Below are positions 21,001 to 30,000 of a stretch of DNA of 64,000 nucleotides, one piece after another; the stretch's first letter is position 1, and every line of letters begins with the position of its first letter. The DNA lies in assembly GCA_049517415.1 (NCBI GenBank), contig JBEKSC010000004.1:1-64000 (forward strand). The letters run 5' to 3'. The position numbers were made by a program. Source of the DNA: Candidatus Bathyarchaeia archaeon (GTDB lineage: Archaea > Thermoproteota > Bathyarchaeia > 40CM-2-53-6).

Positions 21001-24000
21001 CACGGAACTTAAGCTTCACCCAAAGTTGCCAAGATTAGGGCAAATGGAGACTCAAGGATTCAGCGTGCAGTAGATTACAAACTTACTAGGGACATTATAT
21101 AGCGAACGTTAAATATACTAAATCCTAGTTGGCCTTGCATCCAGAGCTGCCGAAAATGACGAGACCTCCTTGGACAATCCGGAGCGACCTCTCTGAGGCC
21201 CCAATCTTTGTTTGCTGGGAAACTACGAAGGCTTGCCTACTTGCTTGCAAGCATTGCAGAGCCAAAGCTATCAAAAAACCCAAGGCTGGGCAGCTCGATC
21301 GCGAACAAGGCTTGAAACTTATAGATCAACTCACAATGTTCGGAGAACCCTACCCCGCGCTTCTCTTGACGGGGGGCGACCCTTTGATGCGAGAAGACTT
21401 CTTCGATCTAATCGAACGAGCAAAGGACCTAGGGATCTATGTGGCAGTCGCCGCGAGTGTGACACCGAAGCTAAATGCATCAACAATCTCGCGTATGACG
21501 GAACTCGGCGTTGACATAATGTCTGTAAGCCTCGACGGGGCTTCGCCAGAAACCCATGACCGCCTTCGGGGGATTCGAGGCACATGGAGCGAGACGATTC
21601 AATCGCTTCGTCTAGCGAAACAGTTAGGGTTGAGGGCACAAATAAACACGACAGTTATGAGAAGCAACCTCGAGGAGCTAGCGGACATCTTTCATATCGT
21701 TAAGGAAACCGGAGCAGTCGCGTGGGAGGTCTTCTTTCTAATTCGAACAGGTCGAGGCGCGGCGCTTGAGGGCCTCGATCCTGAAGAATGCGAGGAAGTC
21801 ATGCACTTTCTCTATGACGCTGCACATTATGGCGTCCCCGTGCGGACTGCGGAAGGTCCGAATTTCAGGAGGGTGCGCATAGAGCGGCAGAATGGTCTGG
21901 CCGCGACGAATGGTGAACTTCACCGCCGCCTGGGTGCGAGGTTGCAAGTTCTGGAAGGACCGCCTACAAGCCCCCCAGCAATGAAGTCAACACAAACACG
22001 GGACGGGAAGGGTATTGTTTTCGTTGCACATGATGGAGAAGTGTACCCAAGCGGTTTTCTGCCGGTCAGCGCAGGTAAAGTGCCCGAAGAGGATCTCGGA
22101 ACGATATACCGGTCGAGTCCGCTATTCATCGCGTTGAGAGATTCTTCTAACTTGAAGGGTCGTTGTGGCAGATGCGAGTACAAAGAAATTTGTGGAGGTT
22201 CTAGATCTAGAGCTTTCGCAGAATACGGAGACCCATTCGAGGAAGACCCTGCTTGTCCGTACATTCCAGACGGGAGCCGAACTGAGCCACTTTCTCTGAC
22301 ACAGTCTCTCTGAGCTGAATGAATGAAATGCCGAAGACTAACCAAGAACACAGGATATTGGAAGTTGCCAAAGAGCTCTTCACTAGACGCGGGTTTTCCA
22401 ACGTCGCTATCCGCGACATATGTAAGGCTGCTAACGTCACAGCTCCTACAGTATACTACTATTTCAGAAATAAGGAGGCACTGTTTGAGACAGTTGTACG
22501 CGAAAGCGTGAGCATGACTGGGTTCATCACGCAATTAGATGATGAATGCAAGAAGGCCAAGAAACCGGCATCGCAAGTCCGAGCTTTCGTTCACACGTAC
22601 CTCACGAGCTTCCCGAAGGAACGTTTGAATGTCGGCCTCTACGTAAGAGACTCGACAGAGCTAGATTCGGTGGGACGGAACACCCTATTGGCTGAGCTCA
22701 GCCGAATTCAGTCTCTTCTGACGCGTATAATTCGAAAGGGAATTACTACCGGAGAATTCCGCGAAACTGACCCGAAAATGGCTGCTGAATGTTTACTTGG
22801 TATGATGCATCGCCTCGTCTTCCAGCAAATTCATTTCAGACGAAACTACAAACCGTCAGAGGCAGCAAATTACCTCTCCGACTTCTTCCTTCGAGCAATG
22901 AATCCCACTTCCGAACGCATTGGAATGTAAGTAAACTGATGGCAAATCTTCAACAGCACTTCACAGTGGTGGGAACTAGCAAACAATGAAACAACATTTG
23001 CTCATTGGAACGAGAGGCAGCTCACTCGCATTAGCGCAAACTAACGAAATAGTTGATTTGATGAAGAAGGTCGCTCCCCATATTCGATGCGAAATTGTCC
23101 CGATTAAGACCCAAGGCGACAAGATGCACGACACGGGAACAGTTGGAGTTGAGGGAAAGAGCCTGTTCACGAAAGAAATTGAGGATTCACTAATTCAAGG
23201 TGAAGTTGACCTAGCAGTTCACAGTATGAAGGACCTTACAACCGATATACCGCTAGGCCTTCAGATAGCCGCTGTCCCAGAGCGAATGAACCCACGTGAC
23301 GTTCTTATTTCCCGAAACAAGAAATTTCAACAGCTTGATGGCGGAGCACGAATTGGAACGAGTAGCGTGAGGAGGAAGGCGCAACTCCTCGCTGCGCGGG
23401 GTGATCTGGAAATCGTTGAGATGCACGGGAATATTGATACTCGCTTGCGAAAACTTGAGAAGGGTGACTGTGACGCGCTTGTGCTTGCCGCTGCTGGTCT
23501 CATAAGGCTCGGACTTGATAAGAGAGTAACCGAAGTTTTTTCGCCAAATGCAATGCTGCCTGCGGTTGGGCAGGGGGCCCTAGCGGTTCAGAGCCGGGAA
23601 GACGATGCTGAAATCAGAACGCTATTGTCAAAGCTAGATCACGGGCCAACCCGCAGAGCAATTGAGGCTGAGCGCGGGTTTGCAAAGAGGCTAGGGGCTA
23701 ACTGTCAGACCCCCATCGCTGCATATGCAAAGGTTGAGAATGGGAAGCTAACAATCGACGGAATGGTCGCCGCTACCAGCGGGAAACTGGTCCTGAGAGG
23801 TCGACTTGTTTCAGATAACCCCAGTGCGAAGAAAGCTGGGGAGGAGTTGGCGGAGTCGTTACTGAAGAAGGGTGCAGAAATCGTGTTGGAGACTAAGTGA
23901 TGCAAGCAGCGTCGCTAAAACCGCTGATTGGGATGACGATTCTCGTGACTCGACCCATTGAACAAGCCCAAAACCTTTCGGAGAAACTGCGTGAACTCGG

Positions 24001-27000: not shown

Positions 27001-30000
27001 TCACATTAGCAAGTTACCTTATCGAAGGCAGGCCAACGAGGGACTTCCTGAACACTAAGATGTTGATGTACCGTGATCCGAAGGCGTGGCATGCCCTGAT
27101 GAACGAGTTGGCGACAGCCATGGCGAGTTATCTGCGAGCGCAGGTCGAAGCGGGGGTGAACGTCGTTCAACTTTTCGATAGTTGGGTTGGGTGCCTTAGC
27201 CCGCACGATTACCATCAATACGTGCTTCCATATTCGCGCCGAATCTTCAAAGAGTTGGAGGTGACTGGCGTGCCGCGCATTCACTTCGGCACAGGAACAT
27301 CAAACTTACTTGAGGAAATGAAGCAGGCGGGGGGAGATGTGTTCGGAGTTGATTGGCGGATTCCCATAGACGTAGCGTGGGGCAGGCTAGGTAGCGACGT
27401 AGGAATCCAAGGCAACCTAGACCCGGCTGTCTTACTGGGGACTTCTGAGTTAATCAAATCTCAGGCAAGTGAGGTTCTGATGAAAACTAAGGGAAGGGTA
27501 GGCCACATCTTCAACTTGGGGCATGGAATGTTACCAGAGGCGTCGCCGCAGAAAGTTATTGAACTGGTAAATTTCGTTCATGACTCGACTCAGAGTTCCT
27601 AGTAGGCGCGAGACTTGGCAGACTTCGGCGTTTTTCTAATGGCTTATGGAACTCCAAATTCAGAAGAGGACATGGAGCCATATCTGACGGATATCAGGGG
27701 GGGCCATAGGCCAACTAAAGTTATTCTAGAAAATCTGACGGAGCGATACAGGAAGATTGGTGGTCGTTCCCCGTTACTCGATATCTCGAACGCTCAAGCC
27801 TCAGCCCTAGAGAAGACCATGAACGCACGAGGAGTGAAGGCTCGAGTCTATGTGGGCATGAAACATTGGCATCCATACATACGTGAAGTTATTCCGAGAG
27901 CCGCGAATGATGGGATTAGCAGAATTATTGCGTTAGCATTGGCCCCGCACTATTCTCAGGTTAGTATTGGCAGGTACAAGCAAGCCCTTGACCACGCTCT
28001 GGCCGAAGCTGTCAATTTGAGCGTAGATTTCGTCGATAGCTGGTACGACCATCCCCTATTCCATCGTGCGGTCGCCGAGAAAGTCAATCTCGCTATGGGA
28101 CAGTTTCCTAGATCTGGTGACGTCGACATTCTGTTCACAGCACATAGTCTACCAGAACGCATCCTTGACCACAACGACCCATATCCATCGCAACTGCGTA
28201 GCTCATGCGAAGCAGTAGCAAACATGCTGAAACTTGACCGCTGGTCCTTCGCTTATCAGAGCGCTGGTCAAACAGCCGAGAAATGGCTTGGCCCAGACAT
28301 TCTGGAATCGCTTAAAGAAATCAGTGAACGCGGCAAAACCGTCAATGTTCTAGTTGTTCCAATAGGTTTCGTCGCCGACCACCTTGAGATATTGTACGAT
28401 ATTGATGTGGAAGCCCAAGAATTTGCTAAGGCACACGGTTTGCATCTGAGACGGACTGAGTCCCTGAACACGAGCCAAACTTTCATTTCGGCACTTGCCG
28501 ATATCGCTTTGACACGAGCCTCCCAGAACAAGTGGGCTTAGAAAATGTCAATCACGTGAAAACGTTACTTTTTCATTATAATGTAAGTTACGAGTCCTTT
28601 CGCAATTAGCCTTTTCTTCTGGTCTTTGACTTCAGCTTCGCCGACGGCGATACGCTTACCCTTGTGAATGATTTGGCCTGAGGCTTTCAGCAGGCCTAGT
28701 TGGGCTGGTGCGGTAAAGTTCACTTTCAGTTCGACGGTAGTGATGAATTCCTCTGCGTCGAGCATAGTGTATAAGGCTAAGCCTACAGCTGAGTCGATTA
28801 AAGCTGCGGCTACTCCGCCGTGTGCCACGCCAGCGTCTTGCGTTAACCGTCTTGTTACGTTGATTCGAATTTCAGCTCTTCCTGTCCCAAGTCTTGTCAG
28901 ATGCATGCCTAGGTGGTTGTAGAACGGCATCTCTCTTGCTAGCTGCCGTATCCAAATCATCCGGCGTGATGATTTTGTCATTCGTGATTTGTCCTGAACG
29001 TTAACCTATTCGTCGAGACAGCTTATCCACGCAGCAACTTGCTCTAGACGATCGTATGTTCGTCTATGTATAATGTGATCAATTTGCTGGTGAAGCTCTC
29101 CGTATCCTTCTGGGTTGCTTGGCCTTCTGTTGAAGTGAATGCTTTCTTCATGGTCTCACTGTCATCAAACCACAATTCCACGACCCCGTCGTAATCTGGT
29201 TCCCTGTTAGGCGGGCGCCGAACGGCATTAACAACATACTTCCTCAGCCCTGGCATTTTCTTCGCTAGTGGAGCGTGTTTTTCTAACCAGTATCGGGCAA
29301 ATTCCTTCTCGGTCAGGGAGTCCTTCTTCTTTAGCAGGATAATCATTTTGAACATAAGCTATCATCCGACGGGCTATGGAAACTATAGCCTAGCTTTGGA
29401 TTAAGAAGATATGTGTGCGAATCGAAGGAAGGTGAAGTTCACTTCTTGCCACTTACGTTCGGGTCGTTGAAATTAGTTTCACTCCAATGGTTCTATCGCT
29501 AGGAGTGTGGAGGGGGCAGTGAGCTAAATTTCGAACTCTAAATACCACTCACATAGTTAAATGATAGCGCTCGATGAAACCATTGATCGTCTGAGCTTCC
29601 AAAATCCACGAGTGGTTCTTTCTTGTTTGCATCGAAGGGTATGGTGGCTCTATTTGTTGCCTCCTTCTTCTTTGCCACAGCCGCGATCTTCATCAGATTT
29701 GCAACCGAGGCTTCTGCAATATCGCTTACGTTCTTCCGTCTCTTTATAGCGGCTTTGGCGATGATTCTATTTGCGTCGGCAAGGCGAAGCTTGCGGTTTC
29801 TGGGGAGGCGCGACTTAACTCTAGTTGCGGTCTCCGGCGTCTTTCTTAGCCTACACTTCGCAACTTTCATTTTCGCCGTTAAGGGGACCACTATCGCGAA
29901 CGCAACCTTCTTGGTAAACACAAGCCCAATAATGCTCGCAGTTCTTTCCCCGCTCCTGATAAAGGAGCGCACAACCTCAAGGGAAGCAATGAGTGTACTG

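Follow-up and report, generated by a model that had tools for sequence, protein, structure and literature searches.

A probable coproporphyrin-dependent haem b operon with two candidate last-step enzymes in a peat-soil Bathyarchaeon

Which pathway supplies haem b to a peat-soil archaeon that carries most of its haem genes in a single cluster? The question is raised by assembly GCA_049517415.1 (2.65 Mb in 59 contigs; completeness 100, contamination 6.86), and the window, i.e. the whole stretch of DNA analysed, is the first 64,000 nucleotides of its contig JBEKSC010000004.1. An earlier note had described here eight genes, for an AhbD-like radical SAM enzyme, a TetR regulator, HemC, HemD, HemB, ChdC, HemE and a ferrochelatase. 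All eight were recovered by ORF scan, Pfam and NCBIfam as one + strand cluster at 21156-28541, with every reading frame intact. The range given at that time ran on to 29355, but the last two genes in it lie on the minus strand and nothing connects either to the haem pathway. The features are listed below.

21108..21118, + strand: TATA-like A+T-rich box about 40 bp 5' of the first-gene ATG, read from sequence; a possible archaeal promoter
21156..22313, + strand: radical SAM/SPASM enzyme of the TIGR04053 family (ATG at 21156; longest ORF from TTG 21129)
22319..22930, + strand: TetR-family regulator (PF00440, 63.7 bits)
22986..23900, + strand: HemC, hydroxymethylbilane synthase (TIGR00212, 352.5 bits, cut-off 164)
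23897..24688, + strand: HemD, uroporphyrinogen-III synthase (PF02602, 218.6 bits; under the cut-off of every NCBIfam HemD model)
24666..25676, + strand: HemB, porphobilinogen synthase (NF006762, 492.2 bits, cut-off 297)
25679..26404, + strand: ChdC (HemQ), coprohaem decarboxylase, actinobacterial type (PF06778, 196.7 bits)
26405..26564, no strand: gap between chdC and hemE, the site of hemL in genus relatives
26565..27602, + strand: HemE, uroporphyrinogen decarboxylase (TIGR01464, 415.4 bits, cut-off 302.95); likely start ATG 26578
27615..28541, + strand: ferrochelatase CpfC, soluble Bacillus/Listeria (coproporphyrin) type (TIGR00109, 238.2 bits, cut-off 124.6)
28565-28981, - strand: hotdog thioesterase
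29044-29355, - strand: EthD protein

We regard the cluster as probably the haem b operon of an oxygen-respiring peat Bathyarchaeon that uses the coproporphyrin-dependent pathway, and we build this reading on which genes are present and absent, the families they belong to, their conserved catalytic residues and their synteny. The activities, the way in which ChdC and the radical SAM enzyme share the work, and the mode of oxidation are inferred from these. Uroporphyrinogen III would be formed by HemA and HemL, both encoded outside the cluster on contig C15, together with HemB, HemC and HemD, and HemE would convert it to coproporphyrinogen III. Once this has been oxidised to coproporphyrin III, iron would be added by the Bacillus-type ferrochelatase, and the resulting coprohaem would be turned into haem b either by the peroxide-dependent ChdC or, independently of oxygen, by the AhbD-type radical SAM enzyme.

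The C15 proteins most resemble the copies that genus relatives carry within the operon (49% identity for HemA, 67% for HemL); sister-genus copies reach 27-29% and 47-49%, respectively. HemL sits between chdC and hemE in relatives G047, G044 and G052, and a 92-aa remnant of it occurs in G049; no HemL remnant is detectable in the corresponding gap of the window. The TetR gene was present at 12 Bathyarchaeia loci; the Nitrososphaerota and Spirochaetota loci compared all lack it, and its position inside the operon is confined to this genus.

The ChdC protein scores 146.6 bits against the NCBIfam model HemQ_actino, under the cut-off of 235. Its best solved relatives are coprohaem decarboxylases. 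When it is aligned with the C. diphtheriae enzyme, its Tyr143, His166 and His120 fall opposite the catalytic Tyr135, the proximal His158 and the distal His118. Relatives G044 and G052 encode ChdC and HemD as one fusion protein of 497 aa, and this links ChdC to tetrapyrrole synthesis. Solved chains from Bacillus, Listeria and other sources that bear the title ferrochelatase or coproporphyrin III ferrochelatase give 211-231 bits with the ferrochelatase of the cluster, and the human enzyme gives about 138 bits; in these comparisons it is far closer to the coproporphyrin enzymes of Bacillus/Listeria type with solved structures than to ferrochelatases that act on protoporphyrin.

Absences were evaluated against the whole genome with Pfam and NCBIfam models, each of which matched 1 to 14 of 14 control genomes. 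As had been claimed, no uroporphyrinogen methyltransferase (SUMT) was found in the whole genome: TIGR01469 has no match, and the sole PF00590 match, C3:127459-128022, is diphthine synthase (TIGR00522, 267 bits). PF01593 (CgoX/HemY), PF01218 (HemF) and PF06969 (HemN_C) likewise have no match in the whole genome. The step from coproporphyrinogen to coproporphyrin, already described as lacking a known enzyme, also finds none in this genome among PF07285 (CgoN), PF03653 (HemJ), PF12724 (HemG type) and PF04261 (DyP). The statement that the new branch replaces the siroheme route is true of this genome and in keeping with the order, but does not extend to the whole genus, of which 6 of 22 other genomes retain SUMT. 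Elsewhere in the order, SUMT occurs together with AhbC/AhbD-like pairs (9/16 genomes of family f10 and 1/5 of family f3). The caveat that a missing CgoX could lie in an assembly gap did not survive. CgoX is also absent from genus relatives in 3-10 contigs (G045, G047, G046 and G041) and from 6/6 Nitrososphaerota genomes with the operon; its absence from this genome is therefore not put down to a gap.

For the oxidation itself, our tentative first choice, which we rate at a little under an even chance, is an oxygen-driven route, spontaneous or adventitious. The genome encodes a haem-copper oxidase, which implies both a use for haem and exposure to oxygen. PMC5801465 and PMC10604556 describe spontaneous oxidation of porphyrinogens by air and expect the CgoX reaction to run spontaneously too, only more slowly. 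Two points count against this choice. Uncatalysed oxidation would halt without oxygen, so that an oxygen-independent last enzyme is hard to rationalise. Also, CgoX is kept beside the same haem genes in some Nitrososphaeria (of the 301 genomes sampled, 16 pass TIGR00562), which suggests that catalysing this step usually pays.

Such an enzyme may still be undescribed: a dedicated coproporphyrinogen III oxidase of a new family, encoded elsewhere in the genome, would make the pathway complete. We consider this possible but doubtful. The gap recurs in independent archaea, namely the genus, the sister genera g2 and g4 and all operon-bearing Nitrososphaerota examined, and it has been published in the part of PMC3004389 that treats the Thermoplasmatales. 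CgoN was recognised only in 2024 (PMC10965808), and so families may still be missing. Leads exist in relatives: in a Thermoplasmata MAG, the radical SAM and ferrochelatase genes flank one for a CopD-like 163-aa membrane protein, and a DyP peroxidase is found in 16/22 genomes of sister genus g2; an E. coli DyP oxidises coproporphyrinogen III in vitro (PMC3215433). However, neither protein has a counterpart in this genome, the g2 DyP is also present in genomes without the haem genes, and a comparison of Bathyarchaeia, Nitrososphaerota and Spirochaetota loci turned up no uncharacterised gene that is conserved alongside the operon.

The first gene of the operon encodes a radical SAM enzyme that passes TIGR04053 (478.8 bits, cut-off 395) and fails the AhbD model TIGR04545 (272.1 bits, cut-off 500). 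Cys36, Cys40 and Cys43 as well as Cys346, Cys349, Cys355 and Cys376 (394-aa ORF numbering) are conserved in it. The TIGR04053 model is also passed by the relatives scored from Vulcanisaeta, Ignicoccus, Sulfolobales and Thermoplasmata. In a tblastn map, a radical SAM paralog adjoins 10 of the 17 archaeal TIGR04053 relatives compared; the three neighbours scored match AhbC/NirJ1 models best, and one archaeal locus includes a tetrapyrrole methylase as well. The equation of TIGR04053 with AhbD rests on gene neighbourhood. In the tree, the enzyme falls into a clade of 46 of the 94 rows (SH-aLRT 98) which has a short stem and is nested among archaeal TIGR04053 proteins, and 94 of the 97 columns conserved in both the operon-type and archaeal groups hold the same residue, with 3 different. 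In the Nitrososphaeria genomes G205 and G213, HemE, a ferrochelatase-like protein, a TIGR04053 enzyme (444.8 bits) and a CgoX-like protein (TIGR00562, 166.4 bits) are encoded in a row, in this sequence. No ChdC match was found in the 7-12 kb around these haem genes, which makes the radical SAM enzyme the sole candidate decarboxylase there. We therefore propose that it is AhbD-type, a putative oxygen-independent coprohaem decarboxylase. The label "bacterial-type" fits HemE, CpfC and ChdC but not this enzyme, which groups with archaeal proteins, and the cluster is accordingly a hybrid. Two alternative last enzymes, as the earlier note had it, remain our best reading, with the residues of ChdC aligned and the radical SAM enzyme placed with the AhbD type by synteny, tree and columns.

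Could the radical SAM enzyme instead be the missing oxygen-independent coproporphyrinogen III dehydrogenase, with ChdC as the sole last-step enzyme? This would complete the pathway in the genus and in the Nitrososphaerota operons. The enzyme is the operon's most conserved protein (66-74% identity to Nitrososphaerota copies, against 43-59% for ChdC, HemE and CpfC), and within the family it (g1) and DyP (g2) are complementary in distribution. Five peat Spirochaetota genomes that encode it, a second TIGR04053 paralog and HemE, with no CgoX, ferrochelatase or ChdC, would need two different radical SAM functions. We nevertheless judge the idea unlikely. The short-stem nesting and the mere three differing columns speak against it; the divergent protein is the second Spirochaetota paralog (84 shared against 33 differing conserved columns). 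The G205/G213 member adjoins a CgoX-like gene in a row that has no ChdC, so that the decarboxylase is the function missing there. The ChdC-HemE-CpfC set of sister genus g2 comes without the radical SAM enzyme, and the enzyme and CgoX occur together in four Spirochaetota genomes.

It is very unlikely that the cluster is not the cell's haem source, i.e. a decaying or partial acquisition in which ChdC has another role and haem comes from outside. One step lacks an enzyme, proteins like ChdC serve other purposes in certain organisms, and G049 has a split HemD beside its HemL remnant; but here the eight frames are intact with catalytic residues retained, the operon proteins are 59-95% identical across the genus, and no other haem route accompanies the haem-copper oxidase.

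ChdC had been reported from 28 genomes, all of this family; the restriction to the family stands within the order, while the count is now 34 of 105 genomes of the order. For the ferrochelatase, likewise given as 28 genomes of the family, we obtain the slightly different count of 32/59. The same operon occurs in Nitrososphaerota MAGs, with related forms in peat Spirochaetota, and the arrangement extends beyond the Bathyarchaeia.

Bacterial contamination of the bin is most improbable: the contamination estimate of 6.86%, the Chloroflexota as closest named relatives of the ferrochelatase, and the labelling of some public entries for this operon as Acidobacteriota are outweighed by the presence of the operon in 18/23 genomes of the genus, two of which carry it on contigs of 1.41 and 1.57 Mb, and by a record labelled Acidiferrales that shares contig coordinates with genus genome G038.

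The coproporphyrin-dependent pathway of Firmicutes and Actinobacteria (UroD/HemE, CgoX, CpfC and ChdC) shares with this cluster HemE, a Bacillus-type ferrochelatase, an actinobacterial-type ChdC and clustering with early genes. It differs in that here the host is an archaeon, CgoX/CgoN are absent and an AhbD-type radical SAM gene stands first. AhbD occurs in bacteria with this pathway without other enzymes of the siroheme route, as excerpted from PMC13564367. The combination is similar, although the enzyme here belongs to TIGR04053, groups with archaea and fails the AhbD model, and ChdC is present too.

The oxidase gap is not new, having already been recorded in a few other archaea. According to PMC3004389 (Storbeck 2010), Picrophilus torridus, Thermoplasma acidophilum and T. 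volcanium have hemE and hemH with no hemF/N and no hemG/Y; the two Thermoplasma species are without SUMT, and the haem route was called unclear. These Thermoplasmatales, known to us from that publication, are likewise archaea with hemE and hemH and no known oxidase. They belong to another phylum, and the difference here is that all the late genes are gathered in a single operon that also holds ChdC and an AhbD-type gene.

The siroheme-dependent pathway (AhbA/B, AhbC and AhbD; archaea and sulfate reducers) shares the last enzyme family and presumably the final reaction; here, in contrast, there is no SUMT and therefore no precorrin-2 or siroheme, and no AhbC-like neighbour. Haloferax gets coprohaem via siroheme, whereas here it would arise from HemE and CpfC. 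In the abstract-level account of PMC5746218, Haloferax volcanii has a ChdC-like PitA and Ahb genes, and is thus, like the present organism, an archaeon with both ChdC-type and AhbD-type last-step routes.

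Eight closely packed open reading frames (ORFs) were identified on the + strand at 21129-28541 by ORF, Pfam and NCBIfam analysis, encoding a radical SAM enzyme, a TetR regulator, HemC, HemD, HemB, a ChdC/HemQ-type protein (ChdC below), HemE and a ferrochelatase (putative CpfC). The window features with a bearing on the text are as follows.

405-1187, + strand: VIT1-family iron transporter gene, 20 kb from the haem operon
19925-20194, - strand: ORF of 89 aa that matches no family and has two hydrophobic segments, situated downstream of the enoyl-CoA hydratase gene
21156-22313, + strand: radical SAM enzyme, scoring 478.8 bits with TIGR04053 (cut-off 395) and 272.1 bits with the AhbD model TIGR04545 (cut-off 500)
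43249-56860, + strand: very large ORFs (867, 1596, 850, 233 and 712 aa) with almost no Pfam matches

The first gene of the cluster most likely starts at ATG 21156, and inspection of the sequence revealed a TATA-like, A+T-rich box about 40 bp upstream. The earlier note had described a branch of the coproporphyrin-dependent pathway (CPD) with an AhbD-like enzyme at 21156..29355. Its eight + strand haem-cluster ORFs are borne out; the two minus-strand genes at the far end of that range, for a hotdog thioesterase and an EthD protein, are not counted in the pathway. By tblastn the EthD protein had 9 matches and the thioesterase 10, all in loci of the same genus and several of them copies of the same genomes, and both were dropped as pathway parts since they are found in only part of the genus. 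The 89-aa ORF has counterparts of 48-89% identity at 10 related loci, among them several copies of the same genomes. The large ORFs at 43249-56860 may encode surface proteins.

By sequence, the enzymes after uroporphyrinogen resemble those of the CPD pathway. HemE scores 415.4 bits with TIGR01464 (cut-off 302.95). ChdC scores 196.7 bits with PF06778 and falls under the cut-off of the NCBIfam HemQ_actino model (146.6 bits versus 235). Its closest solved structures are actinobacterial coprohaem decarboxylases, and a Thermoplasma structure deposited as a 'putative chlorite dismutase' is also among its solved relatives. Tyr143, His166 and His120 of the window protein align with Tyr135, His158 and His118 of the Corynebacterium diphtheriae enzyme, whose numbering offset was set from the W183Y and Y135A structure entries; we take Tyr135 to be the catalytic Tyr and His158 the proximal His, so both are present in the window protein. 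For the ferrochelatase, the top NCBIfam model is the Bacillus-type PRK12435. It scores 211-231 bits against chains from Bacillus and Listeria that were deposited under the name coproporphyrin ferrochelatase, compared with about 138 bits against human ferrochelatase, and is thus by sequence much nearer to the solved CpfC chains. Outside the genus, the nearest relatives with a name are from Chloroflexota (46-49% identity); of the 10 nearest clusters looked up, 2 have a taxon name. In a tree of 95 rows, the ferrochelatases of the genus, of the sister genera g2 and g4 together, of Nitrososphaerota and of Spirochaetota form four separate clades on a backbone without resolution. No donor emerged from this tree and those two names.

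The genome (2.65 Mb in 59 contigs) is rated 100% complete with 6.86% contamination. The remaining early enzymes, HemA and HemL, are adjacent on its contig C15, and a haem-copper oxidase subunit I is found on contig C7. Its single PF00590 match is the diphthine synthase (TIGR00522, 267 bits) and TIGR01469 gave no match in the genome, so the earlier statement that there is no uroporphyrinogen-III C-methyltransferase (SUMT), the enzyme needed for the siroheme-dependent pathway (AHB), stands. The coproporphyrinogen III oxidase of the CPD pathway was not found either, with no match to PF01593 (Amino_oxidase) or PF07285 (DUF1444/CgoN). Whole-genome family searches for HemJ, HemN_C, HemF, HemG-type flavodoxin and DyP peroxidase also gave no match, in agreement with the earlier report of no Amino_oxidase, HemF or HemN. 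Each model behind these absences matched 1-14 of 14 control genomes. The CgoX model TIGR00562 covered 16 other operon-bearing genomes and 301 Nitrososphaeria; in the present genome the absence of CgoX and CgoN rests on PF01593 and PF07285. The earlier note had allowed for a CgoX lost in an assembly gap. This is not so, since relatives in the genus assembled in 3-10 contigs give the same picture on the missing oxidase. Among the six strongest Amino_oxidase matches in the family, four were rejected as CgoX, being CrtO/CrtI-like or PRK07208-like, and the other two (G027 and G028, of g5, a genus without haem genes) were left out. Three weak Amino_oxidase matches looked at in g2 are Mqo/DAO-like and have no homologue in the present genome.

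ChdC was found in 34 of the 105 genomes of the order, namely 18/23 in the genus (the present genome included), 15/22 in g2 and 1/3 in g4. Its confinement to this family, previously given with a count of 28 in 717 across the class, therefore holds within the order with a revised count. Ferrochelatase is distributed likewise, occurring in 32 of the family's 59 genomes. TIGR04053 was passed in 19/105 genomes, 18 of them in the genus and one in another family, f10, so that g2 has ChdC-HemE-CpfC without the radical SAM enzyme; there, this block adjoins a divergently transcribed HemD-C-L-B-A block. SUMT was above cut-off in 15/105 genomes (9/16 in f10, 1/5 in family f3 and 6/22 among the other genomes of the genus), and adjoins radical SAM pairs in several of them. 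From these distributions, both routes occur in the order and the coproporphyrin route alone in the present genome. The claim that the CPD branch replaces the sirohaem route is true of this genome and fits the order, though SUMT persists in those 6 genomes of the genus.

Three relatives within the genus (G047, G044 and G052) have a fuller operon of radical SAM, TetR, HemA, HemC, HemD, HemB, ChdC, HemL, HemE and CpfC, and another (G049) keeps a 92-aa HemL remnant in its operon. In G044 (L023:11279-12772) and G052 (L024:10829-12322) HemD and ChdC are fused into a protein of 497 aa; in both, HemB lies outside the operon and ferrochelatase is elsewhere or was not found. The C15 HemA and HemL share 49% and 67% identity with the in-operon copies of the genus, compared with 27-29% and 47-49% with the g2 copies, and most likely were relocated out of the operon in this genome. 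No hemA or hemL remnants were found in the window.

Peat, wetland and soil metagenomes from 19 studies account for the 20 runs listed with near-identical DNA; 11 of them are possible sources of this DNA, and no RNA data set containing it was among those listed. Public records of the same operon (L051, L056, L117 and L057) are labelled Acidiferrales, Acidoferrum or 'bacterium'. The contig coordinates of L051 are those of G038, which is assigned to this Bathyarchaeia genus. These labels look wrong.

The radical SAM enzyme fails the curated AhbD model and passes TIGR04053, a model to which NCBIfam gives no functional name and of which no mention was found in the literature searched. Four further proteins of the genome match TIGR04053. 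The enzyme has the CX3CX2C motif (Cys36/40/43) and the C-terminal auxiliary-cluster cysteines (Cys346/349/355/376), which are kept in all three groups compared; Pfam reported no SPASM domain at E 0.001. Species-representative genomes were scanned with an alignment of its close homologues, giving 77 loci. In Nitrososphaerota MAGs the same protein (66-74% identity) comes first in an operon radical SAM-HemA-C-D-B-ChdC-HemL-HemE-CpfC (L053, L057, L060 and L093; L054 is incomplete), and in peat Spirochaetota a homologue at 60-65% identity lies alongside haem genes. Homologues at 44-55% identity were found in Vulcanisaeta, Thermocladium, Ignicoccus, Sulfolobales and Thermoplasmata, and those scored (from Vulcanisaeta, Ignicoccus, Sulfolobales and Thermoplasmata) pass TIGR04053 too (448-497 bits). 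A radical SAM paralog adjoins 10 of the 17 archaeal TIGR04053 comparison proteins; the three such neighbours scored match the NirJ1/AhbC models best, all below the cut-offs of those models, and the Sulfolobales locus also holds a tetrapyrrole methylase. Judged by gene neighbourhood, TIGR04053 probably represents AhbD in Thermoproteota and Thermoplasmatota.

In the radical SAM tree (94 rows, quick IQ-TREE search with SH-aLRT support values only), the window protein falls in a 46-row clade (SH-aLRT 98), nested among the archaeal TIGR04053 proteins on a short stem. When the clade was compared with the archaeal rows, 97 columns were jointly conserved (>=93% in the clade, 45 rows; >=85% in 17 archaeal rows), with the same residue in 94 and a different one in 3. 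In the CgoX screen, 16 of 301 sampled Nitrososphaeria genomes pass TIGR00562. Two of this class, G205 and G213 (L151 and L150), show the gene order HemB-HemL, HemE, a divergent ferrochelatase-like gene (87.7 bits, below its cut-off), a TIGR04053 enzyme (444.8 bits) and a CgoX-like gene (166.4 bits). No ChdC match was found within the 7-12 kb fetched, which leaves the radical SAM enzyme as the sole last-step candidate in that stretch. By its gene content, this operon is a predicted archaeal coproporphyrin route that has both AhbD and an oxidase.

CgoX was above cut-off in 4 of the 16 further operon-bearing genomes, and these four are precisely those Spirochaetota whose genes run CgoX-CpfC-HemE; TIGR00562 found it in 0/6 Nitrososphaerota and in 0/5 Spirochaetota of a second type. 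In these five peat genomes (L096, L098, L100, L103 and L118; e.g. L098:9998-19525) the operon runs radical SAM-HemA-HemC-HemD-HemB, a second TIGR04053 paralog (40% identity; TIGR04053 464 bits, AhbD model 353), HemE, a DUF4491 membrane protein and HemL. In none of the five was a ferrochelatase, ChdC or CgoX found, and SUMT was found in three; new enzymes would be required for a HemE-dependent route that has neither a known oxidase or chelatase nor ChdC.

Three readings of the missing oxidation step were considered. The oxidation of coproporphyrinogen could be spontaneous or adventitious, which suits a host that carries a haem-copper oxidase and agrees with published statements on the oxidation of porphyrinogens in air and on a slow, enzyme-free CgoX reaction being expected (passages in PMC5801465 and PMC10604556). 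However, the retention of an oxygen-independent last enzyme fits poorly with it. An enzyme of an undescribed kind could do the oxidation instead. The recurrence of the gap speaks for this, but the reading is weakened because no conserved unknown neighbour was found at the loci compared: three proteins of 443-460 aa without a Pfam family, beside the operons L057, L093 and L025, are mutually unrelated. Two neighbours from other lineages were looked for in the present genome. A Thermoplasmata MAG (L084:3332-5969) has the TIGR04053 gene, a 163-aa CopD-like membrane protein (PF05425) and ferrochelatase in a row. Protoporphyrinogen oxidases of the HemJ type are distantly related to CopD, so that in Thermoplasmata this protein is a candidate for the missing oxidase; it has no match in the present genome. 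For the DUF4491 protein of L098 the sole match was a non-significant one (E 0.11), to the 89-aa ORF at 19925-20194. In family f1 a DyP-type peroxidase (e.g. G010:C51:11094-11486 and G018:C18:5872-6264) is present in 16/22 g2 genomes versus 0/23 in the genus, a mirror image of the TIGR04053 enzyme (0/22 versus 18/23). DyP is also found in g2 genomes without haem genes. An E. coli DyP oxidises coproporphyrinogen III (PMC3215433). Finally, the radical SAM enzyme as the oxidase itself would complete the pathway and is attractive on that ground, but is opposed by the tree, the conserved-column comparison, the G205/G213 operons and genus g2. Overall we consider it possible, though rather unlikely, that the CgoX-less archaea (this Bathyarchaeia genus, its sister genera, some Nitrososphaerota and the Thermoplasmatales) have an undescribed oxidase family, or an AhbD-type radical SAM enzyme which oxidises as well as, or instead of, decarboxylating. 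If true, it would be a new enzyme for a pathway that a 2026 review deems fully covered, in its claim that the known enzymes of the PPD, AHB and CPD routes account for every haem-synthesising organism (passages of PMC13564367).

No earlier description of this pathway in Bathyarchaeia was found in the literature searched. Hou 2023 (PMC10321748) reports cytochrome oxidases in a soil genus. The earlier note had found no text match in it for ferrochelatase or porphyrin; the passages matched are likewise silent on haem synthesis, haem appears in the main text only in references, and two supplementary files gave no match for hemH, K01772, K01599 or chlorite dismutase. Reviews up to 2026 place archaea on the siroheme route, and AhbD in CPD bacteria is already published (PMC13564367). 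The oxidase gap itself is already known in archaea. In the part consulted, Storbeck et al. 2010 (PMC3004389) listed hemE and hemH without hemF/N or hemG/Y in Picrophilus torridus and two Thermoplasma species, both of the latter also without SUMT, and called the haem route unclear. The genus adds to these a well-assembled, soil-dwelling archaeal lineage in which haem must come via HemE, CpfC and ChdC or AhbD without a known oxidase. The comparisons make the Thermoplasma puzzle more testable, as they provide natural operons with and without CgoX, a case for the role of the radical SAM enzyme, and two candidate oxidase substitutes in relatives, DyP and the CopD-like protein.
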